Below, piece by piece: positions 22,521 to 39,291 of a stretch of 64,000 nucleotides of DNA. The notes below the pieces were generated by a model. It saw only the letters and a program-made list of their open reading frames with translations. It did not search any database and was not told where the DNA came from. Position 1 is the stretch's first letter. The number at the start of each line of letters is the position of its first letter. The position numbers and the translations under genes were made by a program. Source of the stretch: a virus; IMG/VR virus record IMGVR_UViG_3300044858_001474, positions 2,465-66,464 of that record; one strand, written 5' to 3'.

Positions 22521-22541
22521 ATGTCCTGTAGTTTAAAAGAT

Positions 22542-22561
22542 TCACCGCCTCAAGCGGTTGG
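22542..22561 (+). promoter_or_regulatory. Promoter-proximal CUYAA hairpin, copy 1
   Basis: TC-ACCGC-CTCAA-GCGGT-T-GG. Confidence 0.65.
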
Positions 22562-22571
22562 CAACCAGAGA

Positions 22572-22596
22572 GCTAAGTTATACCGTATAACTTAGC
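22572..22596. promoter_or_regulatory. GCTAAG palindrome, copy 3
   Basis: GCTAAGTTATAC-C-GTATAACTTAGC, perfect 12-bp arms. Confidence 0.85.
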
Positions 22597-22626
22597 AACA
22601 ACTTAATAATAAATAGGAACAAGACA

Positions 22627-23193
22627 ATGACAATGTTTAAACCACAAACTTACAATTCACTAACTGCTTTGAGAGAAGCAAACGTGCTAGAAGCACACAG
22701 CGACACAGTATTTCAAGGCTTAGATGTCTTCGGCTACTTCGAAGGCAATGCGTACTCAGTTGAGTACGTTTATGATGAAGTATCAGAGGCGAACTATGCA
22801 ATAGCTGGGGATTGCATAGATGAAGAGCCCGTAGTAACACCTACTACGCCAAGAAAATATACCATAAGCCATGTAGCTACGTGCTGTATGGACTATTTTA
22901 GGGGGCATCACTTGCCCAACTTCTCTGTGATGGTAACAGGAGGGTCAACATATAAAGATGTTAGAGATGCCATGCTCGACTGGCAGACTACAGACCACCT
23001 AGACCGCGAACTGTTCAGGGATAGTGAGGACTACAACAACTTTCGTGATGCAGTTGAGGAGCTGTTTATACGAATAGATTTAGATAAGGTGTTCGATGCA
23101 AGACTAGAAACACCACAAACAGAAGAAGAGTGGGACTACTGGGACTACTGGGCGTTCTTTGTTGTAGAGATGGAGGAGGAAGGCGATGAATGA
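22627..23193 (+). CDS. Acidic early protein
   Basis: ORF track; AGGA RBS; D/E-rich. Confidence 0.7.
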   Translation: MTMFKPQTYNSLTALREANVLEAHSDTVFQGLDVFGYFEGNAYSVEYVYDEVSEANYAIAGDCIDEEPVVTPTTPRKYTISHVATCCMDYFRGHHLPNFSVMVTGGSTYKDVRDAMLDWQTTDHLDRELFRDSEDYNNFRDAVEELFIRIDLDKVFDARLETPQTEEEWDYWDYWAFFVVEMEEEGDE

Positions 23194-23212
23194 GCAAACT
23201 ATAGCCTGAAAA

Positions 23213-23238
23213 GCTAAGTTATAACAATCTAACTTGGG
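23213..23238. promoter_or_regulatory. GCTAAG palindrome, copy 4 (degenerate)
   Basis: GCTAAGTTATAACAATCTAACTTGGG, then a TGGGTAGG/CCTACCCA hairpin. Confidence 0.6.
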
Positions 23239-23282
23239 TAGGTAAACCCTACCCATCACACAACATACAATAGGACAATCAG

Positions 23283-23603
23283 ATGGAAAAATTAATTAGA
23301 GATGGTAAGGTAGCTGTGTTAATTTCAGAAGGGTACGGTGGAGGTTGGAGCACATGGGATAGTCAGTACCCAGAGTTGTTGTTGTTTGATGCAACAGTAG
23401 TATTAGCAGTAGATAAGGGCTTACCCTTTGTTAGTATCGAGGAGTATTTAAGGGTTAAGTACCCTGAAGCGTATTTATCCGCAAACGCCTATGCACAGCT
23501 AGTTGTGTATTGGTTAGAGCAAGGTACGGAATTTATTGTTGAGGAGTATGACGGGGCTGAAACAATAAAATTAAAATGTGAAACTAAGTGGGTGGTAGCA
23601 TGA
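23283..23603 (+). CDS. Conserved phage hypothetical protein
   Basis: VAVLIS.GYGGGWSTW...F.VEEYDGAE. Confidence 0.7.
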   Translation: MEKLIRDGKVAVLISEGYGGGWSTWDSQYPELLLFDATVVLAVDKGLPFVSIEEYLRVKYPEAYLSANAYAQLVVYWLEQGTEFIVEEYDGAETIKLKCETKWVVA

Positions 23604-24181
23604 ACTACAATGAACTATCAGACGAGGCAAAGGAACGTGCCTTTAATGACTTTAAGAATAGGGAATTATATGACAACCATTGGGCACATCATGTGCTAGA
23701 AGATTGGGTTGAGCGGTTGGAGGACATAGGCATTGATACTGGAGTGTATGACATACATTGGAGTGGGTTCCACTCACAGGGAGATGGTGCTAGTTTTCAA
23801 GGTGCTATAAACTTAAAAGAGTTCCTTGAGGCACACCCAGAGTTAAAGGCAAGACATAGTGAGCTGTACCTAAGCACAGTACCATTCGATACATTGTCAG
23901 ACGACTATGCGGAGTACATGGTGCTCCTACGAAGAACACAGCACCACAGTTATTACCACGAGAACACCATAACTCTTGAGTGGGATATAGGAACTCACGA
24001 TGATGGAAAGTTCGATAAGGTGATGACCGATGCTGAGCCTGATATATTAGAGCAATGCAGGGAGCATATGCGTAGCTTGTATAACGACCTGCAAAATGCC
24101 TATGAGCACGAGCTAGGACTAGATTGTTTCCTTGAGGGCGTAGAATACATGGACTTTGAAGAGGACGGGTCGCTGTCATGA
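23600..24181 (+). CDS. Acidic conserved early protein (SGFxSQGDGASF family)
   Basis: ATGA overlap with the upstream stop; WSGFHSQGDGASF motif. Confidence 0.7.
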   Translation: MNYNELSDEAKERAFNDFKNRELYDNHWAHHVLEDWVERLEDIGIDTGVYDIHWSGFHSQGDGASFQGAINLKEFLEAHPELKARHSELYLSTVPFDTLSDDYAEYMVLLRRTQHHSYYHENTITLEWDIGTHDDGKFDKVMTDAEPDILEQCREHMRSLYNDLQNAYEHELGLDCFLEGVEYMDFEEDGSLS

Positions 24182-24363
24182 CAGAGGAGGAGCGTAAGAA
24201 GGTTATGGATATATTGATAGAGCGTATGCTAGAAGAGAATAGTATTGCATGGTCTAACCTTAGTAGTGACTATAAGACTGAACTGTATATAACCTTTTAC
24301 CTAAACAAATATAGCGATGAAAAACTGATAGCTGAGCTATTGGGAGTAGACAATGACAAGTGA
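24178..24363 (+). CDS. Small hypothetical protein (paralog A)
   Basis: ORF track. Confidence 0.6.
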   Translation: MTEEERKKVMDILIERMLEENSIAWSNLSSDYKTELYITFYLNKYSDEKLIAELLGVDNDK

Positions 24364-24523
24364 AGAGCGTGTAAAAATGCTAGAGATATTATGTGAGAGG
24401 GTGTTAGCTGAGAAGCGATGCAGAGGGGACTATACAGATACTAGCTGGGTGCTAGACTACCTATCGCATTACCAAGCAGACGAGGTATTAATAGCTAAAG
24501 TATTGGGAGTAGACAAAGATTAA
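24353..24523 (+). CDS. Small hypothetical protein (paralog B, 56 aa), not in ORF track
   Basis: MTSEERVKMLEILCERVL...DEVLIAKVLGVDKD*, similar to the preceding gene; GGAG RBS. Confidence 0.65.
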   Translation: MTSEERVKMLEILCERVLAEKRCRGDYTDTSWVLDYLSHYQADEVLIAKVLGVDKD

Positions 24524-24537
24524 ATGTGTGACCTAAG

Positions 24538-24655
24538 CTGGGTAGGTGAATAAGCCCAGACGCCGTATATCTGTGAGTGGGCGTTTGAATTAACCGCAGA
24601 GGTATCAGGCAGGGCAGCCTATTAATATGTACGCTTTACCGCCTTGTGCTGATAC
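24538..24655 (+). ncRNA. Candidate structured RNA (hairpin + H-type pseudoknot + long stem)
   Basis: GC-richer intergenic region with four predicted helices (see findings). Confidence 0.4.
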
Positions 24656-24686
24656 ACCCCAACCATACAACTAACAGGATAAAAAC

Positions 24687-24968
24687 ATGAAAGCACAACA
24701 AGAAATGAGAGCAGAACAAGAAACTAAACTAAGAAGTGAGGCATTGAACCGCATTATGAAACAACATGAGGAAGAGGTGGACATACTAGCAGACGCGGTT
24801 GACCACTATAGGAATATATGTGCAGGGCTGGTGTTAGCTCTTGTGTTGACCCTATCAGGTGCAGGGTATAGTCTGTACTATTTAAGTAAGCCCTGCGAGA
24901 AGCCTGTGCAGGTAGCTAAGGTTGAGAAAGTTAAGAAAGGAGGTGAACAATATGTTCTAACCCCTTGA
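24687..24968 (+). CDS. Small membrane protein
   Basis: Single hydrophobic helix ICAGLVLALVLTLSGAGYSLYY. Confidence 0.65.
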   Translation: MKAQQEMRAEQETKLRSEALNRIMKQHEEEVDILADAVDHYRNICAGLVLALVLTLSGAGYSLYYLSKPCEKPVQVAKVEKVKKGGEQYVLTP

Positions 24969-24993
24969 CATATAAGGAGTTTTACTGTATAAT
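24965..24993 (+). promoter_or_regulatory. Consensus sigma70 promoter P3
   Basis: TTGACA-17-TATAAT; downstream ATGTTCTGTAGTTTA nearly identical to P2's. Confidence 0.92.
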
Positions 24994-25016
24994 ATGTTCT
25001 GTAGTTTAGTAAAGCC

Positions 25017-25036
25017 TCGCCCCCTCAAGGGGCTGA
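25017..25036 (+). promoter_or_regulatory. Promoter-proximal CUYAA hairpin, copy 2
   Basis: TC-GCCCC-CTCAA-GGGGC-T-GA. Confidence 0.7.
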
Positions 25037-25041
25037 CCAGA

Positions 25042-25066
25042 CCTAAGTTATACAGTATAACTTAGC
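25042..25066. promoter_or_regulatory. GCTAAG palindrome, copy 5
   Basis: CCTAAGTTATAC-A-GTATAACTTAGC. Confidence 0.85.
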
Positions 25067-25085
25067 TAACCATTAGGAGAATCAA

Positions 25086-25382
25086 ATGAGAAACATAACA
25101 TCATTAGCGGCTGACCACTTTCATAGTGGGGCATATTTTAGTCGGGGTAATACAAAGGTTACTGTAGAAGGTAACGTAATTAAATTGTTATTGCATGGCA
25201 ACTGCATAGCACAGCGTACACCTCTAGCTTACACCATCACCAACTGCGGTTGGTTCACGCCCACTACTAAGGAACGGTTGAATGGGTTAGCTGGTGTGAG
25301 CATAGTACAGAAAAAAGGAGATTGGTATTTGAACGGTGAGTATTGGGACGGTGAGAATATTATTATTGGGTGTATGTCATGA
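25086..25382 (+). CDS. Conserved phage early protein
   Basis: LHGNCIA..GWFTPTTKERLNGL; AGGAG RBS. Confidence 0.7.
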   Translation: MRNITSLAADHFHSGAYFSRGNTKVTVEGNVIKLLLHGNCIAQRTPLAYTITNCGWFTPTTKERLNGLAGVSIVQKKGDWYLNGEYWDGENIIIGCMS

Positions 25383-25690
25383 GCGAGTTAAAGATTATAA
25401 CTGATAACAAATACCGCCCTGTATTGTATTGGTACGACCTATTGCCAAAAGAGCAGGAGGAGTATGCATATCTTAATGATAGCGAGAGTGGTGAAGAGGT
25501 AAACGATTGCTCGTTCTTTAGATATAGGAAGTGGTGCTACTTTCTGGGGGACTTCATGCGGGTGGATAACAACGCGCCTTTACCGCTCAAAGGGTGGGAC
25601 GGATACCACAACGATTCATTCTTTAGTGGGGTATTAGTAAGATACAGCGAGTGTGGTGATGCAGTTAAGGTTGCCACATATATTAGTTAA
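25379..25690 (+). CDS. Hypothetical protein (paralog of 31822..32121)
   Basis: TDNKY..LYW.DL..KE.E..Y shared; WDGY..DSFFSG. Confidence 0.7.
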   Translation: MSELKIITDNKYRPVLYWYDLLPKEQEEYAYLNDSESGEEVNDCSFFRYRKWCYFLGDFMRVDNNAPLPLKGWDGYHNDSFFSGVLVRYSECGDAVKVATYIS

Positions 25691-25745
25691 GCAACAGGTT
25701 TCTTTTTCGGGTACAAGTACCCACCTTTTAATTTTGGAGAACATC

Positions 25746-26615
25746 ATGTCAAATACAAACACAAACGTAAAAAGCCTTTCATCATCAGCTATGCTGGTTT
25801 CTCTTAGCATCAGCCTGTGGACAGCTCGCAAGTTAGACAAGAAAGTATCTAACGATGTAGACATATCAAATAGTACGAGAACAAAAGCGGGCAACTACCA
25901 CAAGAACTTACTCGCTGGTGATGACTCACTTGCGGCAATCCAAAAGCTGGCAGGGCTTATCAGAACTTACCACATGACACAGACATCACCGTGGAACGAC
26001 AATGGCGACCGCTTGCTGACTACTGCTCAGTTCTTTACTTATAAGAGTGAGATGGCACGACTTGAGAAGCAGTATTGGGGCTTAGTGAATGACTTTATTG
26101 CAGATTACAACTTAAGGGTAAGTGCGGCGGCGTTCCAGTTAGGTACGCTCTTTGATAGAGCTGAGTATCCTGATGCACAGGAAGTTATAAGTAAGTTCGG
26201 CTTTGTAGTACGGTACAACCCATTACCAGAGTCAGGAGACTGGCGTATAGATATAGGTAACGAGGGGCTTAACGACCTGAAAGACCAGTACGATGCAATG
26301 TACAATGCAAACATAGAGAAGGTACATGCTGACGCATACGACAGGTTGCACAGGATACTTACCCAGCTCAGCTTTGGGTTGCGTACTAACGAGGACGGTA
26401 GTAAAGGCAAGATATATGACAGTGTGTTGGAGAACACACGTGAGTTGTGTGGGTTGCTTACGCATTTCAATATCAAGGGTGACACTCAGCTAGAGGCTAT
26501 GCGTATTAAGTTAGAGGACAGCTTTACTGGCATTGATAGTAAAGACATTAAAGACAGCGACTATGTACGTGTTACCTTGAAGCGTGACGTAGATGCCATA
26601 TTAGATTTGTTTTAG
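25746..26615 (+). CDS. DUF3150-like protein
   Basis: AMLVSLSISLWTARKLD..PWNDNGDRLL..YP; GGAG RBS at MSNTNT; upstream of the AAA/VWA pair. Confidence 0.6.
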   Translation: MSNTNTNVKSLSSSAMLVSLSISLWTARKLDKKVSNDVDISNSTRTKAGNYHKNLLAGDDSLAAIQKLAGLIRTYHMTQTSPWNDNGDRLLTTAQFFTYKSEMARLEKQYWGLVNDFIADYNLRVSAAAFQLGTLFDRAEYPDAQEVISKFGFVVRYNPLPESGDWRIDIGNEGLNDLKDQYDAMYNANIEKVHADAYDRLHRILTQLSFGLRTNEDGSKGKIYDSVLENTRELCGLLTHFNIKGDTQLEAMRIKLEDSFTGIDSKDIKDSDYVRVTLKRDVDAILDLF

Positions 26616-26625
26616 GAGAAGAGAG

Positions 26626-27033
26626 ATGGGATATAGAAGTGAGGTAGCGTATGCAATACGCTTTAAAAATAAAGAACATAGAGTTAGGTTCATGGCGGTT
26701 CAATTTATGAATGAGTGGATTAAACCAGAAGAGTTCTCATTAGTAGATGACGAAACTATTCTATTTAATAAGAGCGGTCTTAAATGGTACGATGAATATG
26801 AAGATGTTAAACAACATAGCCAGATACTTATAGATGCTAAAGAGCAAGGTTGTTCATATGAATTTTGTAGAGTAGGTGAGGATATAGGAGATATAGTTTA
26901 TGATGGGGAGTATGGTACAGATGACAATGGGAAGCATATAGATTCCCCCGATATAGTATGCCCCACTCAGTACATATATGTAGAAACAGAAGGCGAACCA
27001 TACCCCATAGGGGAGACGCTGGACACAGCGTAG
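26626..27033 (+). CDS. Conserved acidic phage protein (MGYRS-EV family)
   Basis: MGYRSEVAY..KWY..F.RVGED..D. Confidence 0.7.
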   Translation: MGYRSEVAYAIRFKNKEHRVRFMAVQFMNEWIKPEEFSLVDDETILFNKSGLKWYDEYEDVKQHSQILIDAKEQGCSYEFCRVGEDIGDIVYDGEYGTDDNGKHIDSPDIVCPTQYIYVETEGEPYPIGETLDTA

Positions 27034-27048
27034 CATGTAGCGTATAAT
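27020..27048 (+). promoter_or_regulatory. sigma70 promoter P4
   Basis: TGGACA-17-TATAAT. Confidence 0.8.
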
Positions 27049-27069
27049 ATACCTGCAGTCGAAGAAGCA

Positions 27070-27089
27070 TCGCTCCCTTAAGGGGCTGA
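27070..27089 (+). promoter_or_regulatory. Promoter-proximal CUYAA hairpin, copy 3
   Basis: TC-GCTCC-CTTAA-GGGGC-T-GA. Confidence 0.7.
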
Positions 27090-27100
27090 CAACTATAACA

Positions 27101-27126
27101 GCTAAGTTATAACAACCTAACTTAGC
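27101..27126. promoter_or_regulatory. GCTAAG palindrome, copy 6
   Basis: GCTAAGTTA-TAACAACC-TAACTTAGC. Confidence 0.8.
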
Positions 27127-27146
27127 ACAACAACTAGGAAACAATT

Positions 27147-28223
27147 ATGAAAAAGCCATATAGCAGTATATCAATGCAAGAGTGCATTAAACTTATCTCA
27201 GCAGTAGGAGATAAGATATCTGTCCTTGTACAGGGTGAGATGGGTTGCGGTAAGTCATCTATATTAAAAGAGTTAGCATTACTTCACCCCAACCATGTGC
27301 CTTGTTATGTCGACATCACCACTAAGGATGTGGGAGACTTTCTTATTCCACAGATACGTACACTAGATGGCACACCAGTGTGTAGCTTTATCCCTAATGA
27401 GGAGTTCGGTCTGCACTTAGGTAAGCCCGTTATACTAATGTTCGATGAGTTAGGTAAGGGTAGCAATGCTGTAAAGAACGCATGTCTTACAGCGATTCAG
27501 GAGAGGAAGTTAGGTATCCATAAACTACCAGAAGGTTCAATCGTATTTGCCACAACTAATCTGTCAGTCGAGGGTGTAGGTGATAGCATACTACCCCACT
27601 CAAGAAACCGTATGTGTACCGTCAAGATGCGTAAACCTACTGCGGAGCAATGGCGATGGGACTTTGCCCAAAATGCGGGGATTGACCCTGTAGTTATAGC
27701 AACTGCTATAGAGTATCCAGCTATGCTGGCATCATTCGAGGACTATGAGCGCCCCGATATGAATGAGTACATCAATGACCCTCGTGTACCAAGAGCGGCG
27801 TTCGTTACGCCACGTTCATTAGAGAAAGCGTCATTCATACTACAGAGTTGCCGTGATATGCCAGAAGATGTATTAACCCATGCGTTGTTTGGGGTTATCG
27901 GTGAGAGGGCTACGATGGATATGATGAATGTCTTGAAGTTAAGCAACACCATGCCTAGCTGGGCTGAAATCATCAACAACCCGACTACTACTGTAGTCCC
28001 ACATAACGGTGCGTCCACCTGCTTGATAGTATCAAAGGCACTAAGTAACGTAGAAGATACTACCTTTGGTAGCTGGATGCAGTATATGGCACGACTGTCT
28101 AAAGAAGCACAGGCTCTGTTCGCTATGAGTGTTATGAGTTCTAAGAGTCCTAAGCGTAGCATAGCAGCTACTAATAGAGTCTTTACTGAATGGGCTGTGA
28201 ACAACGGCTACCTTTTTAATTAG
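27147..28223 (+). CDS. MoxR/dynein-related AAA+ ATPase
   Basis: Walker A GEMGCGKS, Walker B LMFDE, ATTN sensor, TPRS. Confidence 0.88.
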   Translation: MKKPYSSISMQECIKLISAVGDKISVLVQGEMGCGKSSILKELALLHPNHVPCYVDITTKDVGDFLIPQIRTLDGTPVCSFIPNEEFGLHLGKPVILMFDELGKGSNAVKNACLTAIQERKLGIHKLPEGSIVFATTNLSVEGVGDSILPHSRNRMCTVKMRKPTAEQWRWDFAQNAGIDPVVIATAIEYPAMLASFEDYERPDMNEYINDPRVPRAAFVTPRSLEKASFILQSCRDMPEDVLTHALFGVIGERATMDMMNVLKLSNTMPSWAEIINNPTTTVVPHNGASTCLIVSKALSNVEDTTFGSWMQYMARLSKEAQALFAMSVMSSKSPKRSIAATNRVFTEWAVNNGYLFN

Positions 28224-28232
28224 GAGAGTGAG

Positions 28233-29387
28233 ATGGTACTAAGTGCAGAGGATAGAATAACCAAAGCTCACATAGCTTTGATGCAAGACAAGCGTACCCT
28301 AGCATACTCAGGGTTGTTGATGGTAGGTAAGGTAGAGGTGAAAGATGACTGCCCTACAGCAAGTACCAATGGGCGTGATGTTACATATGGTAGGGCTTTC
28401 GTTGAGAGTCTTAAGGATAGTGAGTTACGGTTTCTTATACTACATGAGACCAAGCATAAGTTATATCAGCATCTATTTGTGTGGCGTAAGATTCATGAGG
28501 AAGATGCTATGTTAGCTAACATGGCGTGTGATTACGTTATTAACCTAGAGATACAAGACCTTAACAAGTGGGGCGACTTCCTTGTTATGCCAGAGGGAGG
28601 GTTAGTAGACGAGATGTATCGAGGGTTAGATAGCGGCGAGGTGTTCGCTAGGTTGAAGGAAGATAAGAAGAACGGTAAGGGCAACGGTGGTAAGCCTATG
28701 GACGAGCATGACTGGGACGGTGCTAAGAGTTTAGACGAGGCAGAGAAGGAGGCGTTAGCTAAGGAGATAGATAGTGCTGTACGTACTGGTGCACTGTTAG
28801 CAGGTAAGCAGGGGGGTGAGGTAGACCGTAGCTTTGATGCTGTGATGCAGTCTAAGGTTAATTGGGCTGAGCAGTTACGTGAGTTCGTATCGACAGTATG
28901 TGCAGGTAAGGGGGACAGCACATGGGCTAAGCCTAATAGACGCTGGTTACAGCATGACATCTACATGCCCAGTCAAATCAGTGAGAGCATTGGTAGTATC
29001 TGTGTAGGTATAGATACATCAGGCAGTATATCAGGCGAAGATATTGCAAAAGCATTGGCAGAGTTAGTTAGTATATGTGATAATACAACTCCCGAAAAAG
29101 TAGATTTACTTTACTGGGATACAGAGGTTGCCGCTCACGAGCAGTATCGTGAAGAGAATTACAGTGGGTTACTCACATCTACCAAGCCTAAAGGTGGAGG
29201 TGGCTCTAGTTCCCTGTGTGTATTTGACTATGTCGTTAAGAATAAGTTAGAGCCACAGTGCATTGTAATGATTACAGACGGATGGATTGAGTTTCCACAG
29301 ACAGCCCCACTGTACCCTACTATCTGGGTAATGGTAGATAACAAACACACTGTGCCCCCATTTGGCTCAGTAATACGGGTGGACTAA
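28233..29387 (+). CDS. Metallopeptidase-like + VWA domain protein (DUF2201-like)
   Basis: TASTNG, HETKH (HExxH), NMACDYVIN; MIDAS DTSGS, GGG, TDG. Confidence 0.88.
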   Translation: MVLSAEDRITKAHIALMQDKRTLAYSGLLMVGKVEVKDDCPTASTNGRDVTYGRAFVESLKDSELRFLILHETKHKLYQHLFVWRKIHEEDAMLANMACDYVINLEIQDLNKWGDFLVMPEGGLVDEMYRGLDSGEVFARLKEDKKNGKGNGGKPMDEHDWDGAKSLDEAEKEALAKEIDSAVRTGALLAGKQGGEVDRSFDAVMQSKVNWAEQLREFVSTVCAGKGDSTWAKPNRRWLQHDIYMPSQISESIGSICVGIDTSGSISGEDIAKALAELVSICDNTTPEKVDLLYWDTEVAAHEQYREENYSGLLTSTKPKGGGGSSSLCVFDYVVKNKLEPQCIVMITDGWIEFPQTAPLYPTIWVMVDNKHTVPPFGSVIRVD

Positions 29388-29602
29388 TGACAATACGAAT
29401 AGATTTAACTTCCAATAAAGCTACTCATTTAGATAACGTGGTTCTGAAGGAGGGAGATGTCATATCGTTTAGTGATGTTTCTGAGCTAGACCCCCCAGTG
29501 CCAGAGAGGGTGGCACTACTTAGGTTAAGTCCTCATGGGGAGCATGTAGAAGGTATTGGTATGCGGATAGACGAGCATACCTATGTAGTGAATGAGATGT
29601 AA
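29387..29602 (+). CDS. Hypothetical protein
   Basis: ORF track; coupled; ERVALLRL..VEGIGMR. Confidence 0.6.
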   Translation: MTIRIDLTSNKATHLDNVVLKEGDVISFSDVSELDPPVPERVALLRLSPHGEHVEGIGMRIDEHTYVVNEM

Positions 29603-29757
29603 AGGTTAAGCTCCTGCCTTTCAGGGGTTATTTAAAGAGGAAGTAAAAATGCAAGGTACTCATGAACAAGATAGTTTGGTATAGCTTGGGATTAGTTGTA
29701 ATCGTAGGGCAAGTATTAATTATATTGGTAGATATAGTAAAGGGTGTTCATTAAAAA

Positions 29758-30465: not shown

Positions 30466-30686
30466 TGTTAAAAGTGTTGTATAAGAGAGGACACACTCTA
30501 GCTGATATAGCTAGAAAGACTGATACAGCTATGGGTACACTGAGTTGTGTTAAACAAGAAACTAAAGCCCCACCAGCAGGATGGTTAGAAGGCATCGCGA
30601 TGCTAGATTACTGGCTTAAGGCGACAGGCGAATCCCCACCACGTATAGGGGACTATATAGATGTAGGAGAATTTACAGATGAATGA
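30438..30686 (+). CDS. Small HTH (Cro-like) protein
   Basis: [19 protein letters not shown]. Confidence 0.6.
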
Positions 30687-31371
30687 GCATAAAGATTACC
30701 GAGTAACGGTACGAGTAAGGAATAACAATATACTTAAATTGATTGAGGCTAAAGGAGTATCTGTGGCTAAGGTAGCTGAAGATATAGGTATGTCTTATAC
30801 TACATTGTTGGGATACATCCAACTACGTGATTCTCCAATAGACGCAAAAGGCACTCTAAAACTGTCAGCACAAAAAATATGTGCCTACTTTGGTGTGCTG
30901 GTTGAAGAAGTATGGTCGCTAGAACAGCTTACCCCTATAGAGTCTAATACACGAGAGCTTGAGTTCTCCTACCATGAGCTAACACGGCTTGAGAATATCT
31001 CTGACCCTATACTAAATCTTGAGAACGACCAATTAAAAGAGGTTATAGACTTTACCTTAGACACAAAACTAACCCCTAGAGAATCTAATATATTAAAGTT
31101 AAGGTTTGGATTTGAAGGAGACCCTCTATCATTAGAGCAGGTAGGAGACGTATTAGGAGTAACAAGAGAACGTGCAAGACAGATAGAAGCTAAGGCTCTT
31201 AGGAAGCTAAGACACCCTTCTAGACTTAATAGAGTCCGTGTTTGTTTGGGGGAGCGCGAAGTTGGTCCACAACGTTGGGACGACCCTAAAAAACTAGCAG
31301 AAGAAAAATTAGCAGATGACTTAGCGTTTTTAGAATACAGAAGTAGTAAGGAGCTCGTAGATGAGGACTAA
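30679..31371 (+). CDS. XRE-type HTH fused to a sigma70 (RpoD) region 4 domain
   Basis: N-terminal [16 protein letters not shown]; C-terminal [45 protein letters not shown]. Confidence 0.85.
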
Positions 31372-32121: not shown

Positions 32122-32315
32122 AACTACAACAAATGCAGTATCCACTAGCAACAACCAGTGCTAGATGTATGGGTACTAACTGCAACCAGAAGAACCTATG
32201 TCAGAGATACCTGACCATTGAGATAGACACACAGAACTACGTGTGGCATATGGACGTAAAGAAAGAAATAGATGATGACGAGATATGTGACTTTTTTATT
32301 GAGTGGGGTGTGTGA
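32118..32315 (+). CDS. Small Cys-rich protein
   Basis: RC.G..C.....C.RY...C..F. Confidence 0.6.
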   Translation: MKLQQMQYPLATTSARCMGTNCNQKNLCQRYLTIEIDTQNYVWHMDVKKEIDDDEICDFFIEWGV

Positions 32316-32524
32316 TGAACAGAGAAGTAGTGGTGAACCTATTTAAAAAAGTAGCAAGGATACTAGAAGACGACAAGGAATACGAATGGTTAGCTGATGA
32401 GGTCAAAGATTACTTAAATGAAATACATGTTAATGAAGAAGCAGAACTTGAACAAGCATTAAAAGATACTATTGACGATGAAAGAATAAGGCAAATAATG
32501 ATAAATTGCATCGCATATAATTAA
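32315..32524 (+). CDS. Hypothetical protein
   Basis: MNREVV start coupled to the upstream stop. Confidence 0.55.
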   Translation: MNREVVVNLFKKVARILEDDKEYEWLADEVKDYLNEIHVNEEAELEQALKDTIDDERIRQIMINCIAYN

Positions 32525-32538
32525 AGTGGAGAAGAAAG

Positions 32539-32886
32539 GTGAATAAAGAAAGAGAATTGCTTAAAAGAATAGCGAACTATGGGGATACTATATCTCCACA
32601 TTTTATTTACGAGATAAATGAACTACTCGCCCAACCTGAGCAAGAGCCTGTGGCTTGGATGCAAGATAGTATTGAGTTATATGTACTAGAAGAAAAATCC
32701 GCAATAAGAGGTTATGTAATACCCCTATACACAGCACCACCAACCCGTGAGCCTTTAAGTGATGGTGAGATACGTGATGGTTTAGATGGTAAAAATGGTT
32801 TTGAAAATTGGTATGATGATAGGTTTGTGGATGGGGTTCGGTTTGCAGAAAAAGCACACGGCATAACTGGAGTAGATGATGAGTAA
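32539..32886 (+). CDS. QPEQEPVA-family phage protein (paralog 1)
   Basis: [35 protein letters not shown]. Confidence 0.7.
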   Translation: MNKERELLKRIANYGDTISPHFIYEINELLAQPEQEPVAWMQDSIELYVLEEKSAIRGYVIPLYTAPPTREPLSDGEIRDGLDGKNGFENWYDDRFVDGVRFAEKAHGITGVDDE

Positions 32887-33283
32887 GGAAAGAGATTTGT
32901 TATTAGTAGCATTAGACTTTTTAGACCCAAGAAGATGGTCAGACCCATCTGACCAACATGTTTTAAATATTATTTCTAGGGATATTGAATTGTTACTCGC
33001 CCAACCTGAGCAAGAACCTGCGGCTTGGATAATTGAAACAGAAATTCATGGAAAACTTAGTGAATGGGTATGCACTGATAAAAAACATTACATGGAAGAG
33101 CATGATTCTATTAAAGAACCAATACCTCTCTACACAGCGCCACAAAAACGTAAACATTTAACTGACATAGAAATATCAAAAGGGTTTAAAGCTGATGATG
33201 AAGCCACACACCTTTACAGTTATTGGGCAGGTGTTGAATTTGCTGAGAAGCATCACGGCATTGGAGGTGGATGCGATGAGTAG
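32876..33283 (+). CDS. QPEQEPVA-family phage protein (paralog 2)
   Basis: Same motifs as paralog 1. Confidence 0.7.
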   Translation: MMSKERDLLLVALDFLDPRRWSDPSDQHVLNIISRDIELLLAQPEQEPAAWIIETEIHGKLSEWVCTDKKHYMEEHDSIKEPIPLYTAPQKRKHLTDIEISKGFKADDEATHLYSYWAGVEFAEKHHGIGGGCDE

Positions 33284-33292
33284 GGAAAGCAT

Positions 33293-33592
33293 ATGAATAT
33301 CTATGAAGCTAGATGGAACAATGTTTTGAGCTGGGCAAAGAAAGTCAAGGAATATTACGATACTGGCAAGTATATGATTAAGTGGGATGATGATTTTTAT
33401 CCAAATGAGTATGACTTTGTTATTGATGAAGAAAACAGATTAATTTCCATCGATTCGAAAGATGGAACAACTGGAAATCAGATATACGAATATGATTTAA
33501 ATTGGGATCACGGCTCTTATACATCTATCACTGAAACCAATAAAATATTATCAGAAATTAATTTATATAGGATGGAAAAGGTGAAGATATGA
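33293..33592 (+). CDS. Hypothetical protein
   Basis: ORF track; AT-rich. Confidence 0.55.
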   Translation: MNIYEARWNNVLSWAKKVKEYYDTGKYMIKWDDDFYPNEYDFVIDEENRLISIDSKDGTTGNQIYEYDLNWDHGSYTSITETNKILSEINLYRMEKVKI

Positions 33593-33631
33593 CCGAACAA
33601 GGAGCGTTAAAAGCAAAACAGATGAGGCTAT

Positions 33632-33856
33632 ATGATATTTGAAGAAGAACCAACGCTAAAAGAATTTTCCGATAAATTTAATGAGTATGTAAATGACCTC
33701 ATGACGACTGACGGAAATGTAGCAAGTCATACCTTTCCTGCCGCAATCTATTTTGAAGTGGAGGGTTCAGATCATCAATATTCTATATCAGAATGGTGCG
33801 GATCAGTTTACAGAAATCCCACAAAGATACCTACAAAACATCAAGGAGGTTATTAA
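33632..33856 (+). CDS. Hypothetical protein
   Basis: ORF track; GAGG RBS. Confidence 0.45.
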   Translation: MIFEEEPTLKEFSDKFNEYVNDLMTTDGNVASHTFPAAIYFEVEGSDHQYSISEWCGSVYRNPTKIPTKHQGGY

Positions 33857-34167
33857 TGAGTAAAGAAAGAGAGTTGTTGAGAGAAATAATGTGCTATATA
33901 GCATCGGGCGTAGTGTCTATTACAAGTAATGATCTTGGTGATGCCGCAGAAACGTTGCACGAAATACAAGAACTCCTCGCCCAGCCTGAGCAAGAGAACT
34001 TTGGGGTCTTTAAAGCCTTTTTAGAGCAGCTTGAATTTGATATACAACAAGACAATATAAAACGCCTAGTGCTATGTATGAGGCAAGATAATAAAAGTGT
34101 TTTAGCACAAGCGGTTTTAGATTATATGAAAGAGATCAATGCACCTATTGATATGGAGAAAGAGTAA
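33856..34167 (+). CDS. QPEQE-family protein (paralog 3, different C-terminus)
   Basis: [16 protein letters not shown]; GGAGG RBS. Confidence 0.65.
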
Positions 34168-34565
34168 TGAATACAAGAGATAAGATAGCTATAGCGGCTA
34201 TGAATGGGTTAATGACTAAGAAGACTTGGAACTTGCAAGAGTTTGCACAAGACCCTATGAGGATAGCAATGTGGTCATACGATATAGCTGATGCAATGAT
34301 AATAGAGAAAAAAAGAAGAGAGCTGGCGGAGAGGAACAAACTAGAGGAGGCACCTAACCCACACCTTAAAGTTTTGATAAGAGACCTTGACCTTACCACA
34401 CGTGCCCAAAACTGTTTAAAAGCAGAGGAGATAGTATCTATTGAAGACTTAGCTCAACGGACTGAAGTTGAGCTATTAAAAACACCTAACTTAGGTAAAC
34501 ATACTCTACGTGAGATAAAAGATATGCTTACTCTTAGGGGTTTAAATTTACAAGAGAGACACTAA
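34167..34565 (+). CDS. Phage protein with an RNA polymerase alpha-subunit C-terminal domain
   Basis: [40 protein letters not shown] closely matches RpoA CTD. Confidence 0.9.
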
Positions 34566-36400
34566 TGCAACTAATGACAATAGACTTCGAATCTTTCTAC
34601 AGCAAAACATACAGCCTATCAAAGCTGACCACAGAAGAATATATAAATGGGGAGGAGTTTGAAGTTATTGGAGTGGGTATTAAGCTAGGAGATGCAGAGA
34701 CTACGTGGCATACAGGAGATCGAGTAGAGATAAGTAAAGTGCTTGGTCAATATAATTGGAGCGAGATTACTTTAGTAGCACACAACTGTTTCTTTGATGC
34801 GTCTATCCTTAGCCTTTACTTTGGTATCTTTCCAGCTAGGTATATGGACACTCTATCTATGGCACGTGCTATACATGGTATATCGGTAGGAGGTAGCTTA
34901 GCTAAGCTGGCAGAGCATTATGAGCTGGGAGTTAAGGGCACTGAGGTTGTTGATGCATTAGGTAAACACAGAAGAAACTTTACTGCGGGAGAACTAGCTA
35001 GGTACGGTGAGTATTGTATTAATGATGTTGAACTGACTTATGCACTGCTACAAAAACTACTAAGCCATTACGGGAATACACTTGAGCTACGTCTGATAGA
35101 TATAACAGTTCGTATGGGGGTTGTTCCTAGATTACAGGTAGACATGGGGATACTTGAGAGCCACTTATATGAGGTGAAGAAAGCAAAAGAGGACTTATTA
35201 GATAAGATAACAGTCGATAAGTCTGAGATTATGTCCAACCCTAAGTTTGCTAAGTTACTAGAAGATTGCGGCGTTGAACCACCTATGAAGATATCGCCTA
35301 CTACAGGTAAGATGACGTATGCATTTGCCAAGACTGATGATGGCTTAAAGGAATTACTTGAACATCCTAATCTTATGGTACAGGCGTTAGTTGCGGTTAG
35401 GCTAGGGGTTAAGTCTACTATTGAGGAGACACGTACTGAACGCTTTATAGGTATAGCAAACCGCATGGGGAGAATACCTATCCCACTTAATTATTATGGA
35501 GCGGCTACAGGTAGGTGGTCTGCAGGTAGTGGGCAGAAAGTAAACTTCCAAAATATTCCTAGAGGGTCTAAACTTAAAGAAGCAATCATCGCACCACAAG
35601 GATACGTTATAGTAGGAGCTGACTTATCAAACATCGAGCTACGTGTAGGTATGTGGGTAGCAGGTGAGACAGAGGCTTTGAGGACACTAGGCGAAGGTGG
35701 GGATTTATATAAGGAGTTTGCTAGTATGGCATTTGGTGTGCCTTATGATGAGGTAACTAAAGACCAAAGGTTTATTGGTAAGACATCGCAACTAGGACTA
35801 ATTTTTGGGGTCGGTGCGGCAAAGCTAAGAGGTGCTGTGAAGGCAGGGTCAGGTAAAGACTTAGGGGAGGCAGAGGCTAAGCGGATTGTTGACTTGTATC
35901 GTGCAACTTACACAGGGGTTACTGGTCTATGGAGAACGTGTAATGATGCTATTAAGTGTATAGCAGATGATGTACTAGGGTTTACATTTGGTACTAAAGG
36001 TATATTTATAGTTGATGGAAAGAAAGGAATAAGACTTCCTTCTGGTATGTACATGCAGTACCCGCAACTAGCTAATGGAGTAGATGAAAAGACAGGCGAG
36101 CAAGGATATAAATATAAACTTCGTAATGGTTATGATAGACTATACGGCGGTAAATTAACAAACAATCTAGTGCAGGGCACAGCCCGATGCATTATGTCAG
36201 AAGCAATGGTTAGGGTAAGTAAGCGGTATGACATCGTGCTTACTATTCACGATGCTTTATATATCCTAGCTCCTGAAGCAGAGGCAGAAGAAGCACTAAA
36301 GTTTTTAATGGAAGAGATGACCAAACCTCCTATATGGATGCCTGATATACCACTAGCGGCTGAGGGTGGATATGGTAGAAGTTTAAAAGATGCAGGATAA
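34565..36400 (+). CDS. polA: Family A DNA polymerase with 3'-5' exonuclease
   Basis: ExoI DFES, AHN..FD, YC.ND; ATGRWS, NFQNIP, DLSNIELR, R..GK...LG..FG, IHD. Confidence 0.95.
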   Translation: MQLMTIDFESFYSKTYSLSKLTTEEYINGEEFEVIGVGIKLGDAETTWHTGDRVEISKVLGQYNWSEITLVAHNCFFDASILSLYFGIFPARYMDTLSMARAIHGISVGGSLAKLAEHYELGVKGTEVVDALGKHRRNFTAGELARYGEYCINDVELTYALLQKLLSHYGNTLELRLIDITVRMGVVPRLQVDMGILESHLYEVKKAKEDLLDKITVDKSEIMSNPKFAKLLEDCGVEPPMKISPTTGKMTYAFAKTDDGLKELLEHPNLMVQALVAVRLGVKSTIEETRTERFIGIANRMGRIPIPLNYYGAATGRWSAGSGQKVNFQNIPRGSKLKEAIIAPQGYVIVGADLSNIELRVGMWVAGETEALRTLGEGGDLYKEFASMAFGVPYDEVTKDQRFIGKTSQLGLIFGVGAAKLRGAVKAGSGKDLGEAEAKRIVDLYRATYTGVTGLWRTCNDAIKCIADDVLGFTFGTKGIFIVDGKKGIRLPSGMYMQYPQLANGVDEKTGEQGYKYKLRNGYDRLYGGKLTNNLVQGTARCIMSEAMVRVSKRYDIVLTIHDALYILAPEAEAEEALKFLMEEMTKPPIWMPDIPLAAEGGYGRSLKDAG

Positions 36401-36468
36401 TATGGCTAACAAAACAAGTAATAAGAACCGTAAGAAAAAACCAAACCCTTTTAGAGCGAGAGAGAACT

Positions 36469-36672
36469 ATGGCTGACATTGCAGATAAAGCCAACGAGCA
36501 AGCCCAGTTAATACTGGAGAAACAAATAGCACTACAACGTGGCAAACCACTGGATATATACCAGAACGAGTCTAATAGATGTTGGTTCTGTGATGGTGAT
36601 GTAGTTGATGGTAGACGGTGGTGTGATGAGCAGTGCCGTGATGACTATGAACGTGAGGTAGGGAATGAGTGA
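36469..36672 (+). CDS. TraR/DksA-like C4 zinc-finger protein
   Basis: N-terminal D-x-x-D-x-A (MADIADKA); CWFC...WCDEQC. Confidence 0.65.
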   Translation: MADIADKANEQAQLILEKQIALQRGKPLDIYQNESNRCWFCDGDVVDGRRWCDEQCRDDYEREVGNE

Positions 36673-36806
36673 AGCAATAAGTACATTAGAAGAATTGGAA
36701 ATTCAAATACGTAGTGAAACAATAATAGCTATGTATTTAATGGATCAACTCAATTTAAAGAAGAAGCTTATACATGAGTTATACGAAAAAGAAAGAGCTT
36801 TGAAAA

Positions 36807-37124
36807 GTGAAGTGGCCTAACTTTTATTTTCCACCTATAAACCTTTGGAGCTACCCTAATATGATAAACGAAGAATCAAATGTAAAACCTGTATGGAAGC
36901 CTAAAGAAGTTCCAGCTGACCCTATTAATAACCCAAGTCATTATACGCATGGTGGGATTGAAGTGCTAGATTACCTAGAAGCTAAAGGGTTGGATAAGGA
37001 TTTTCACTTAGCTAATGTAATTAAGTATGTGTCTCGTGCAGGATACAAGATCAATAAGCTAGAAGATTTAAAGAAAGCTAGATTCTACTTAGACCGCAGG
37101 ATTAAACTTTTGGAGATTGAATGA
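36807..37124 (+). CDS. DUF3310 family protein
   Basis: DPINNPSHYTHGGIE..NVIKYVSRAG.K..EDLKKARFYL; start may be MINEE. Confidence 0.85.
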   Translation: MKWPNFYFPPINLWSYPNMINEESNVKPVWKPKEVPADPINNPSHYTHGGIEVLDYLEAKGLDKDFHLANVIKYVSRAGYKINKLEDLKKARFYLDRRIKLLEIE

Positions 37125-37267
37125 CTCGACTATTAAGAAAGTGGTTTTGCCCGCCACACAGGTGTACAAAGTTTAGGCAGTATTACGGTTTGAACTTAAA
37201 GATATGTGATGAGTGCAAAAAAGAAAGCCCTTTGTGGGAAGCGAACATAATAAAACATCAGAGGTAG
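37121..37267 (+). CDS. Small Cys/His protein (48 aa), not in ORF track
   Basis: MTRLLRKWFCPPHRC...ICDECKK..*; ATGA overlap. Confidence 0.5.
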   Translation: MTRLLRKWFCPPHRCTKFRQYYGLNLKICDECKKESPLWEANIIKHQR

Positions 37268-37269
37268 CT

Positions 37270-37464
37270 ATGATAAACGGTTTAGGGCATGACGATAGTG
37301 GTGAGAATGAGTGTGATGTATGTAGCACAGATTTTACTGATGATGAAGGTGGGATTACAGGATACTTTGGTATCTTGCCAGTAGCGTTTTGTCCTGACTG
37401 CTTGAGTAGCATGTGCGACATGGTTAGTCAGCTTATGGGTTGGGGTGAGGAAGAGGACGAATGA
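37270..37464 (+). CDS. Small Zn-finger protein
   Basis: CDVC..FCPDC; GAGG RBS at MINGLG. Confidence 0.6.
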   Translation: MINGLGHDDSGENECDVCSTDFTDDEGGITGYFGILPVAFCPDCLSSMCDMVSQLMGWGEEEDE

Positions 37465-37937
37465 ACGAGAATGACATACAAAGATTCTGGGCTAAGGTAG
37501 ATAAAACTAACGAATGCTGGGAATGGGCTGCCTATAAACAAAAGAATGGGTACGGTCAATTTGGTATAGGTAGACACTATATAGTATATGCCCATCGTGT
37601 ATCTGCATATCTAGCTGGTATAACTACATCACTTAAAAGCAAAAGTACTAACGATCAAATATGCCATACTTGTGATAATAGGGGGTGTGTAAATCCAGCG
37701 CATTTGTTTAAAGGTACAGCTAAAGATAATGCGTTAGATAGAGATTTAAAGGGGCGAACAAATAGTGCTAAAGGGGAATATTCAGGTAGAGCTAAATTAT
37801 CTGCACAAGATATAAATAATATTAGAAGTTATTATAGTGAAAAAGAAGCTACACAAAAAGAATTAGCTACACAATACCAAGTGCACCCATCTCATATATC
37901 TAGGATAGTGAATAATAAAAAATGGGCTTGGTTATGA
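37461..37937 (+). CDS. HNH homing endonuclease with C-terminal HTH
   Basis: RFWAKVDK..CWEW..GYG..AHRVS..ICHTCDNRGCVNPAHL. Confidence 0.9.
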   Translation: MNENDIQRFWAKVDKTNECWEWAAYKQKNGYGQFGIGRHYIVYAHRVSAYLAGITTSLKSKSTNDQICHTCDNRGCVNPAHLFKGTAKDNALDRDLKGRTNSAKGEYSGRAKLSAQDINNIRSYYSEKEATQKELATQYQVHPSHISRIVNNKKWAWL

Positions 37938-38626
37938 AAGCCCCTCCATTTAGTTACTCTAGTTTATCGCAGTTTATAACCTGCCCAAAAAATTACGAAG
38001 CACACAAGGTTTTAAAGTACATACCGTTTACTGACACAGATGCCACACTGTACGGTAAGGATGTCCATTTAGCAGCAGAACACTATATAGGATCAGGCAC
38101 CCCGTTGCCTGAGAAGTACAACTATATTAAGGGCTATCTTGATACATTAAATAATATCAAGGGCGATAAGTTCTGTGAGCTTGAACTGGGCATTAAGTTA
38201 GAAGGTGGCGAGTATAGCCTATGTGATTTTGAGGCGAAGGACAGATACTGGCGCGGGATTGCTGACTTAGTAATTGTAGACGAAGCGGCAGGTAAGGCGT
38301 ATATTGTGGATTACAAGACAGGTAAATCTGCCAAGTATGCGGATACCAAGCAACTTGCACTACTAGCGGCGGCTGTATTTTTAAAGTACCCAGCAGTTAA
38401 AACTATTAAAGGAATGCTGTTATTTGTAGTGTCCCAAGAAGTAGTGAAAGCTGAGTACACGTATGACAGGCGCTTTGAGATATTTGATAACCTGAAAGAA
38501 GTTTTAATGCAACGTGAAGTAGCATACGAAACAGGTATCTTTAATACTAAACCTAATGGGCTTTGTCGGCAGTGGTGTCAAGCAGTTAGGTGTGTGCATA
38601 ATGGGAGGTATGATGGCGACAAGTAG
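37934..38626 (+). CDS. PD-(D/E)XK (RecB/Cas4-like) exonuclease
   Basis: SYSSL..CP, GIADL, DYKTG, QL, LCRQWC. Confidence 0.88.
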   Translation: MKAPPFSYSSLSQFITCPKNYEAHKVLKYIPFTDTDATLYGKDVHLAAEHYIGSGTPLPEKYNYIKGYLDTLNNIKGDKFCELELGIKLEGGEYSLCDFEAKDRYWRGIADLVIVDEAAGKAYIVDYKTGKSAKYADTKQLALLAAAVFLKYPAVKTIKGMLLFVVSQEVVKAEYTYDRRFEIFDNLKEVLMQREVAYETGIFNTKPNGLCRQWCQAVRCVHNGRYDGDK

Positions 38627-38772
38627 AAAGGCAGGGAAGTCAATTATGGATGAAATAATGTGGAAATATTATGATAGTCGTACTGATTCGTACGACTACA
38701 AGAGAATGGAAATTGACTTAAAGATTGACCTGATAATGTTAGATGATTTAAAGAAAGCAGAGGAGTTAAAAG

Positions 38773-39054
38773 ATGGCATACAAGAACAAAGCTGATAGAA
38801 ACGTAGCACGTGAAGTAGAGCTGGAGAAGAAGCGCCCCGGAGCTCATGAGGCTAGGATGGAGAGGCAACGTGCAAGACGAGCGGCAGACAAAGCGGGTAT
38901 AGACAGAACGGGTAAGGACATAGATCACATACATGGTACAAAGGCAGGTAATGGGAAAGCTAACTTGAGACTTAGAACACCATCACAGAACCGATCTTTT
39001 ACCCGCAACTCTGACCACACCGTAAAGATCAATGAGCCTAAAAAGAAAAAATGA
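38773..39054 (+). CDS. Small HNH-family protein
   Basis: GKDIDHI..N...NLR...NR. Confidence 0.7.
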   Translation: MAYKNKADRNVAREVELEKKRPGAHEARMERQRARRAADKAGIDRTGKDIDHIHGTKAGNGKANLRLRTPSQNRSFTRNSDHTVKINEPKKKK

Positions 39055-39257
39055 AGATATCTGTAAAATCTGTGCGGGTAATGGCGGCAGATGCTGGTTT
39101 ACCTGATACTTTAATTGATAGGCATTTAGACGCGTTATGTGGAATGGCATTACGCCTTAGAGCAGCAGAACGAAAACTATGCCAGAATAAAATACGTGGG
39201 TGGTATAGTGATCGAAACTTGAACAAGGCGCAGTTATTTGATATACTAGACGACTAA
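39051..39257 (+). CDS. Hypothetical protein
   Basis: ORF track; ATGA overlap. Confidence 0.5.
   Translation: MKISVKSVRVMAADAGLPDTLIDRHLDALCGMALRLRAAERKLCQNKIRGWYSDRNLNKAQLFDILDD
39219..39247 (+). promoter_or_regulatory. sigma70 promoter P5
   Basis: TTGAAC-17-TATACT with extended -10 TG. Confidence 0.7.
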
Positions 39258-39271
39258 ATAGAAGAAACGAG

Positions 39272-39291
39272 TCGCTCCCTTAAGGAGCTGA
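39272..39291 (+). promoter_or_regulatory. Promoter-proximal CUYAA hairpin, copy 4
   Basis: TC-GCTCC-CTTAA-GGAGC-T-GA. Confidence 0.7.

Follow-up and report, generated by a model that had tools for sequence, protein, structure and literature searches.

Protein-recognized hairpins in nascent RNA underlie the lambda N/nut and Q systems, as well as the tethering tools boxB/N and MS2, and the known examples are, to our knowledge, drawn almost entirely from a few coliphages. The put site of phage HK022 is a two-stem RNA element of ∼70 nt which acts without a protein, and the Com protein of phage Mu acts on mom mRNA at a translational operator. Here, we describe a 20-nt RNA hairpin (hairpin 1) that occurs four times in a 64,000-nt stretch of phage DNA (the window), which comprises bases 2465 to 66464 of the 66,464-bp IMG/VR record IMGVR_UViG_3300044858_001474 (completeness rating 100%). 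It is a cleanly covarying RNA element, tightly linked to one orphan gene encoding a 68-amino acid (aa) protein, in an abundant lineage of uncultured freshwater phages that relies on the host RNA polymerase. If it serves as an antitermination signal or a translational switch, it would represent an independent, minimal RNA–protein module and would provide a function for an orphan gene family; the case for the motif as a candidate new RNA family is well supported even if its mechanism is ordinary.

Hairpin 1 resembles the nut sites of lambda and P22 in being a 5-bp stem with a pentaloop on the coding strand, with a freely varying stem and a fixed loop; in both systems, copies are found in promoter-proximal leaders as well as after a small first gene, and all copies are upstream of a terminator preceding essential downstream genes. 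It differs from nut in its conserved bulge and UC...G flanks and in belonging to a host and phage lineage unrelated to the lambdoid phages, and an effect on termination is here a hypothesis. Like put, copies of hairpin 1 are RNA elements located shortly after early promoters which could act on the transcribing polymerase; unlike put, there is a single conserved 20-nt hairpin, while the second stem varies between genomes and is absent at the copy in front of the helicase gene. Because only one short hairpin is conserved, the element is not put-like. The arrangement at the helicase gene recalls Mu com-mom, where a small protein gene directly upstream is followed by a short hairpin adjoining the ribosome-binding site (RBS) of the next gene, and the short stem, single bulged base, and sequence-specific loop recall the coat-protein operators of MS2 and PP7. 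In contrast to Com, the 68-aa protein is not a zinc finger, and in contrast to all three operators, most copies in the window are far from any RBS and the protein partner of hairpin 1 is a candidate.

Hairpin 1 in the early gene block

We searched the window with the pattern TC-N5-CTYAA-N5-TGR (TCNNNNNCTYAANNNNNTGR), which does not require pairing. There are exactly four matches in the 64 kb (22542, 25017, 27070, and 39272), all on the + strand; shuffled versions of the window gave a mean of 0.6 matches, with 1 of 100 shuffles reaching four, and the full 66,464-bp record holds the same four forward matches and zero reverse matches. All four pair at five of five positions (ACCGC/GCGGT, GCCCC/GGGGC, GCTCC/GGGGC with one G-U pair, and GCTCC/GGAGC), and the centroid folds of all four leaders contain hairpin 1. 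A preliminary description, made from the letters of the window, had reported UC-stem-CUYAA-stem-U-GR hairpins at these four positions, and this observation is confirmed. Rfam gave zero matches at gathering score across the window and none overlapping the hairpins at E ≤ 10 in 22480 to 27160, and generic word searches of the literature, which do not prove absence, did not find a description of the motif. The features relevant to hairpin 1 are as follows.

22492–22520, + strand: σ70-type promoter P1, TTGACA-17-TATAAT, 12/12
22542–22561, + strand: hairpin 1 copy 1, UC-ACCGC-CUCAA-GCGGU-U-GG
24965–24993, + strand: σ70-type promoter P2, 12/12
25017–25036, + strand: hairpin 1 copy 2, UC-GCCCC-CUCAA-GGGGC-U-GA
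27020–27048, + strand: σ70-type promoter P3, TGGACA-17-TATAAT, 11/12
27070–27089, + strand: hairpin 1 copy 3, UC-GCUCC-CUUAA-GGGGC-U-GA, in the leader of the ATPase gene (27147–28223)
39051–39257, + strand: 68-aa orphan gene, product pI 9.2, ending 14 nt before hairpin 1 copy 4
39219–39247, + strand: weak promoter-like site, 9/12 (TTGAAC-17-TATACT, with TG), which falls within the final part of the 68-aa gene and lacks conservation in most relatives
39272–39291, + strand: hairpin 1 copy 4, UC-GCUCC-CUUAA-GGAGC-U-GA, the universally conserved copy, before the helicase RBS
39304–40848, + strand: SNF2-family helicase gene, start revised by alignment with relatives

The longest open reading frame (ORF) of the helicase begins at 39292. 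In every relative, however, the alignment starts from the ATG at 39304 (MQIDVINDK), which has the Shine–Dalgarno (SD) sequence GAGG; the first ATG after copy 4 is thus probably not the helicase start.

Covariation and conservation in related phages

Relatives were gathered via the ATPase gene (the best 80 of 108 loci), and a covariance model was built from 20 copies of the hairpin. As the preliminary description had proposed, we used this model to search related phages. It matched only loci whose ATPase is at least ∼69% identical (L005–L024), always on the strand of the gene; it found nothing in L025–L084 and gave no significant match in five complete distant genomes (best E 0.76) or in the distant contigs G014 and G015. 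When 35 distinct copies were aligned, 99% of cells paired, a percentage that is partly built in because the copies had been prefiltered for at least 4/5 pairs. Owing to this prefiltering, the weight rests on three tests without selection for pairing.

The pattern TC-N5-CTYAA-N5-NG was applied to the close clade and the window, where 27 of 32 unique + strand matches pair at all five positions; among controls with the same unpaired pattern, the corresponding counts were 0/15 on the − strand and 0/21 in 662 kb of distant relatives. A further scan, across IMG/VR, held two stem pairs and the flanks constant, with 80 of 108 matching stretches listed and the remainder read separately. Among the matches listed, 23 of 81 had all three remaining pairs, and the other 58 had zero, one, or two (18, 30, and 10, respectively). 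By context, 19 of the 23 fully paired matches were assigned to this phage group, 17 of them with an upstream −10 hexamer plus L171 and L190, and four sit in unrelated GC-rich contigs. Lastly, loci containing homologues of the 68-aa gene were picked by protein homology alone, and two of 71 were dropped as having <45 nt after the gene, leaving 69 usable. A fully paired hairpin lies within ∼45 nt of the stop codon of the 68-aa gene in 67 of these, and the hairpin of L322, which is slightly beyond the stretch scanned, is fully paired too, bringing the count to 68/69. The remaining locus, L326, has four of five pairs, and its GCTCC/GAAGC stem is the expected intermediate between GCTCC/GGAGC and GCTTC/GAAGC.

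Four of six pairs in the 35-copy alignment change on both sides, its covariation score was reached by 0 of 500 shuffles, and slid registers pair at 27 to 58%. The 35 distinct copies contain 15 stem variants, to which the homologue loci add ATCAC/GTGAT and GTTAC/GTAAC. Against this freedom in the stem, seven positions are invariant in 35/35 copies: G8 (four nt upstream), U11, C12, loop positions C1, A4, and A5 (C18, A21, and A22), and G29. G29 pairs with the C of the UC across a one-base bulge, making the outer C-G pair invariant, and the bulge is U in 31 of 35 copies. The loop is CTTAA in 23 copies, CTCAA in 10, and CATAA in two, with CGTAA appearing once among the homologue loci. The compensatory stem changes, conserved pentaloop, and bulged U noted from the window hold in the relatives, with the loop fixed at C1, A4, and A5 and the bulge usually U. 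The consensus form is G-N-N-U-C-(5 bp)-C-N-Y-A-A-(5 bp)-(bulge, mostly U)-G, and the alignment contained no further conserved single-stranded block beyond G-N-N-UC.

We conclude that hairpin 1 is a real, selected, and strand-specific structure at the RNA level, restricted to a single lineage of uncultured freshwater phages. Such a free stem next to an unchanging loop, bulge, and helix base typically marks a hairpin read by a protein, and hairpin 1 is probably a cis-acting operator of the early RNA, recognized by a protein that would regulate transcription or translation.

The same alignment bears on whether hairpin 1 could be a passive structural element with no dedicated factor, which would insulate an RBS, block scanning by an exonuclease or RNase E, or hide an SD-like AAGGRG sequence. 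Leaders in these phages are generally structured, with genome-specific palindromes in every relative and a 5′-terminal 9-bp hairpin downstream of the promoter P19625, and in 27 of 35 copies the 3′ half of hairpin 1 reads as an SD-like AAGG[AG] paired to the C-rich 5′ arm. However, pure structure needs no fixed loop or flanks, and here seven positions are invariant in every copy while the stem takes 15 versions; moreover, stem position 24 varies (G, C, U, or A) together with its partner, so pairing outweighs likeness to an SD. We consider a purely passive role improbable.

We also considered that the conserved unit could be a DNA-level element or an opposite-strand terminator, i.e., a protein-binding palindrome, a hot spot for recombination of promoter cassettes, or a − strand intrinsic terminator. 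Site 1 was flagged as terminator-like on the − strand, where the stem ACCGC/GCGGT is followed by GAATCTTTTA, and promoter-plus-leader modules are repeated in the genome in the manner of the PeSL cassettes of the T4-type phages RB49 and phi1. PeSL stem-loops are terminators that lie upstream of the transcription start, in, overlapping, or upstream of the −35/−10 elements, or just before the start (PMC2839356). Both systems combine a repeated strong σ70-like early promoter with a G/C-rich stem-loop before small early genes, but hairpin 1 is transcribed (at about +12 to +28), lacks a U-tract, has a fixed loop, and also occurs without a promoter. In addition, the element is asymmetric (the CTCAA loop is not palindromic) and present on a single strand, its stem bases covary where a DNA operator would conserve them, and the 19.7 to 45.8 kb region has no − strand genes, with the − strand T-run beginning ∼4 nt after the stem. 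A DNA-level or opposite-strand role is thus very improbable.

The lineage itself is distant from cultured phages. Positions 22000 to 28000 of the window gave no DNA match, in near or distant mode, against 50,697 deposited phages, and among cultured phages its family A DNA polymerase is best matched, at ∼33% identity, by those of Pseudomonas phages KPP25 and Rollin and of some Rhizobium phages. DNA runs containing the stretch are lake, freshwater, and estuary metagenomes. The + strand from ∼19.7 to 45.8 kb is the early/replication gene block, with genes for a MoxR-like ATPase, a DUF2201/VWA protein, DNA polymerase A, the SNF2 helicase, and a DUF927 primase. It is flanked on both sides by genes for portal, terminase, and tail proteins, which run on the − strand. 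Most early proteins had no match in PHROGs and Pfam.

Position relative to promoters and the helicase gene

Every copy of hairpin 1 is on the coding strand of the early/replication operon. The UC of window copies 1 to 4 is at the 22nd, 24th, 22nd, and 25th nt after the −10 hexamer, in agreement with the 22 to 25 nt first reported, and copies 1 to 3 are downstream of three of the four best σ70 matches in 17 to 37 kb (12/12, 12/12, and 11/12). The preliminary description had gone further, placing the hairpin at a fixed position after four σ70 promoters. This is correct for the promoters of sites 1 to 3, whereas site 4 has only the weak 9/12 match, and the fixed position did not survive comparison with relatives. 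A σ70-like promoter precedes 26 of the 35 distinct copies, with the hairpin starting at the 19th to 34th nt after the −10; the remaining copies, mostly the one before the SNF2 helicase, have no promoter. At locus L092, there are zero promoter-like sites within 200 nt of the helicase-junction hairpin, and in G002–G004 and G013, the helicase copy starts one nt past the stop codon of the upstream gene. Conversely, there are consensus promoters without the hairpin: P19625 in the window, P7848 and P11001 in G001, P58871 and P11624 in G002, and equivalents in G003. The hairpin is not tied to promoters, and its offset from the −10 is short but not fixed.

The number of leader copies differs between genomes: the window and G005 each have three, G001 has two, and G002–G004 and G013 have one each. 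The helicase copy is universal and in most cases has no promoter close by. The gap between the hairpin and the helicase SD, read from the printed sequences of the homologue loci, is 0 to 5 nt, and in L322 and L190 the closing G of the hairpin is itself part of the SD. G013 has a second promoterless copy (L190), which is followed by GAGAACGAC-ATG.

These positions raise the possibility of a post-transcriptional operator, in which a phage or host protein bound to the hairpin would control translation and/or mRNA lifetime, acting on the adjacent RBS at the helicase junction and serving in the leaders as a 5′-proximal shield or an RNase target. The universal copy sits between the 68-aa stop codon and the helicase RBS, the second G013 copy likewise precedes an RBS, and since leader copies vary from zero to three, the ancestral role seems tied to the helicase junction. 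Hairpin 1 is also always the first structured element in the leaders, which would be relevant to a process dependent on the 5′ end and not to antitermination. On the other hand, three of the four window copies are 60 to 85 nt before the start codon with another hairpin between, which is too far for RBS occlusion, and the intergenic spaces are so short that any intergenic element would abut a stop codon and an SD. Known stabilizer hairpins sit at the 5′ end, whereas the leader copies begin ∼12 to 28 nt from the presumed transcription start. Taken by itself, post-transcriptional control is a doubtful explanation; because the hairpin lies beside the helicase RBS after a small gene, as in Mu com-mom, we nonetheless regard a role in translation or stability as nearly as likely as the antitermination mechanism set out below.

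A small orphan gene linked to hairpin 1

The distribution of genes was determined by iterated profile search over 15 related genomes, eight bearing the hairpin and seven lacking it. The 68-aa family was found in 8/8 hairpin-bearing versus 0/7 hairpin-less genomes, and the homologue loci invariably show a triad of 68-aa gene, hairpin, and helicase. The family has only 34 relatives among 5.8 billion proteins, none of them named and none with a Pfam domain, and ESM Atlas returned unnamed viral clusters only. The protein is basic, without an arginine-rich stretch, and its only invariant cysteines are two in number; the AlphaFold model has four helices (predicted local distance difference test score 77.8). 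From linkage alone, the 68-aa protein is a candidate binding partner of the hairpin.

The only other protein with the 8/8 versus 0/7 pattern is encoded at 36469–36672 (+ strand). This 67-aa, four-cysteine protein matches PHROG 54 (“DksA-like zinc-finger protein”, E 1.6e-9), with no Pfam match, and may bind in the RNA polymerase secondary channel. Genes 21213–22469 and 37121–37267 follow at 6/8 versus 0/7, the misses being G011 and G012, which are partial contigs (47 and 40% complete).

Terminators and a possible antitermination mechanism

The terminators of the early block and the features associated with them are the following.

19625–19652, + strand: consensus promoter P19625 without hairpin 1, 11/12, with TG, feeding a one-gene unit
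20668–20697, + strand: strong terminator, ending the hairpin-less P19625 unit
42942–42968, + strand: strong intrinsic terminator, seven G-C pairs plus T7, separated from the primase start by 22 nt that hold no promoter
42991–45792, + strand: DUF927 primase gene, downstream of the 42942 terminator

The terminators at 20668 and 42942 are the only strong + strand terminators in the early block of the window. The preliminary description had pointed to the latter as a barrier that the hairpin might help transcripts to pass, and the terminator is both strong and shared: one stands immediately ahead of the primase gene, too close for a promoter to fit between, in 9/9 hairpin-bearing genomes examined (G000–G005 and G011–G013), and its stem shows compensatory changes across G001–G005 and G011–G013. 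Five genomes with neither the hairpin nor the 68-aa gene (G006, G008, G009, G010, and G015) have no strong terminator from the early promoters to the end of the primase gene. In G000 and G001, a hairpin-less consensus promoter feeds a unit of ∼1 kb that ends in a strong terminator (P19625–T20668 and P7848–T8777). This pattern fits what an antitermination signal would predict.

Under such a mechanism, hairpin 1 emerging from the host RNA polymerase would recruit a phage factor, with the 68-aa orphan protein, whose gene immediately precedes the universal copy, as the leading candidate. This would render the polymerase termination-resistant, as at a lambda nut site, and modified complexes could read through the strong terminator before the primase gene, whereas transcripts from hairpin-less promoters would stop at terminators. 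Antitermination is accordingly a live hypothesis, and we tentatively favor a nut-like version of it as the most likely of the mechanisms considered, at well under an even chance; protein binding, the identity of the factor, and the effect on termination are each steps that we infer. The fuller proposal, that binding of the 68-aa protein to the CNYAA hairpin makes the host polymerase termination-resistant and times primase expression, would amount to an undescribed two-part RNA switch in which N/nut-like logic was invented independently, with no boxA and a new fold. This fuller proposal is unlikely.

Several observations weigh against antitermination by the 68-aa protein. The universal copy abuts the helicase SD, a position that suits translational control equally well, and a leaky terminator that simply lowers primase expression would account for the terminator equally well. 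Hairpin, terminator, 68-aa gene, and DksA-like gene arose in one clade, so their co-occurrence counts as one evolutionary event. The hairpin-less consensus promoters in G002 and G003 are not explained by any terminated unit. In the sister lineage G011/G012, the leader element keeps the GGATTC...TTGG flanks and has a stem of 6 to 7 bp (ACTCTC(G)/(T)GAGAGT) with an 8-nt loop; these diverged elements (∼892 and ∼3437 in G011, L239; ∼144 and ∼2875 in G012, L241) lie after the palindrome, not before it, and the helicase copy of both genomes remains canonical, with a CATAA loop. A Foldseek search of the 68-aa model against the PDB gave no match at E ≤ 0.001 (best E ∼4 to 6), so the model does not indicate RNA binding. 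The points that separate hairpin 1 from boxB, given next, count on the same side.

The comparison with boxB in the preliminary description was apt for geometry only. A true member of the lambda/P22 N-nut family would be a boxB bound by an N-type arginine-rich protein together with host NusA/B/E/G, and a 5-bp stem with a 5-nt loop, placed after early promoters and before a terminator, is what such a site would look like. The boxB of nutR is printed as agcccugaaaaagggc (PMC2724277). Loops of nut boxB are of GNRNA type, whereas the CNYAA loop of hairpin 1 cannot form the GNRA-like fold of lambda and P22. A boxA (CGCUCUUA / UGCUCUUUA) lies a few nt 5′ of boxB in nut sites, but none accompanies hairpin 1: a search for GCTCTTTA with ≤1 mismatch returned 78 matches versus 78.1 expected, with no + strand match within 400 nt of a hairpin. 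A scan for arginine-rich motifs found no clade-specific arginine-rich protein; its sole hits were a helix of sigma region 4, a spurious ORF of 31 aa, and a 93-aa HNH-like protein. The last of these, the one real candidate, is very basic (38773–39054, + strand). It contains an arginine-rich stretch (GAHEARMERQRARR) that is strongly conserved, matches HNH_3 weakly (E 0.016), and is present in 13/15 related genomes, hairpin-less relatives among them. The cultured phages nearest to this lineage are, moreover, non-lambdoid. These membership tests largely refute a true N-nut system, which we regard as scarcely tenable.

Two candidates were dropped along the way. One took the loop to resemble a NusA-binding boxC oligonucleotide, a motif for which a literature search found no paper. 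A 2208-aa ORF (45820–52446, − strand) was considered as a virion RNA polymerase serving palindromes with 3-nt loops as promoters and was rejected, as it matches lytic transglycosylase, internal virion protein, and DarB-like families. No phage RNA polymerase was found in the window.

Two further early proteins of the window match domains related to transcription. The C-terminal half of a 132-aa protein (34167–34565, + strand) matches the RNA polymerase α-subunit C-terminal domain (PF03118, E 4.3e-20), and the protein was found in 0/15 related genomes; a phage copy of this domain could interfere with UP-element or NusA contacts of the host polymerase. A 230-aa protein (30679–31371, + strand) combines an N-terminal helix-turn-helix with sigma-70 region 4 (PF04545, E 1.6e-18) and, among the relatives compared, occurs only in G009.

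Genome-specific palindromes and other features of the early leaders

A second element of the leaders is a near-perfect palindrome, CTAAGTTA-N6-8-TAACTTAG, with seven copies in the window, all on or near early leaders. In the three leaders that carry both elements, we refer to the palindrome as hairpin 2.

19686–19709: palindrome
20394–20417: palindrome, inside an ORF
21532–21555: palindrome, inside an ORF
22573–22595, + strand: hairpin 2, CTAAGTTATA-N3-TATAACTTAG, between hairpin 1 and the RBS
23214–23235: palindrome
25043–25065, + strand: hairpin 2 in the leader of copy 2
27102–27125, + strand: hairpin 2 with 8-bp arms

All relatives carry a corresponding palindrome downstream of their early promoters, with a different, genome-specific sequence (GTAGGAC-N3-GTCCTAC in G001, GGTGCAATGCACC in G002 and G003, and TTCCCTATGATAGGGAA in G006). 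A palindrome stem that is constant within genomes and different between them suggests a genome-specific protein–operator pair acting on DNA or RNA.

In the leader of P19625 (19653–19709), a different 9-bp hairpin, AGUUAAAGC...GCUUUAACU, comes first, at or beside the expected start, and the palindrome follows directly (z-score −3.4). This leader hairpin looks like a 5′-terminal stabilizer. Directly after the −10 of P19625 is the sequence GTAGTT (19653–19658), which has the same placement in distant hairpin-less genomes. In hairpin-type promoters, GTAGTT lies ∼7 nt further downstream (ATGTYCTGTAGTTT; 22521–22534 and 24994–25007), and it is not conserved at sites 3 and 4. TAGTTT resembles a −10 hexamer, and such a hexamer at about +2 to +7 is the layout of sigma-dependent promoter-proximal pause sites.

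Downstream of the terminator at 20668, ∼520 bp (20690–21212) contain no credible ORF and consist in part of (TTA)n/(TA)n simple repeats and T-rich runs; this region may be an origin or another cis site. The sequence AGACGTT(T)AG recurs nearby at ∼19562, ∼19617, and ∼20737.

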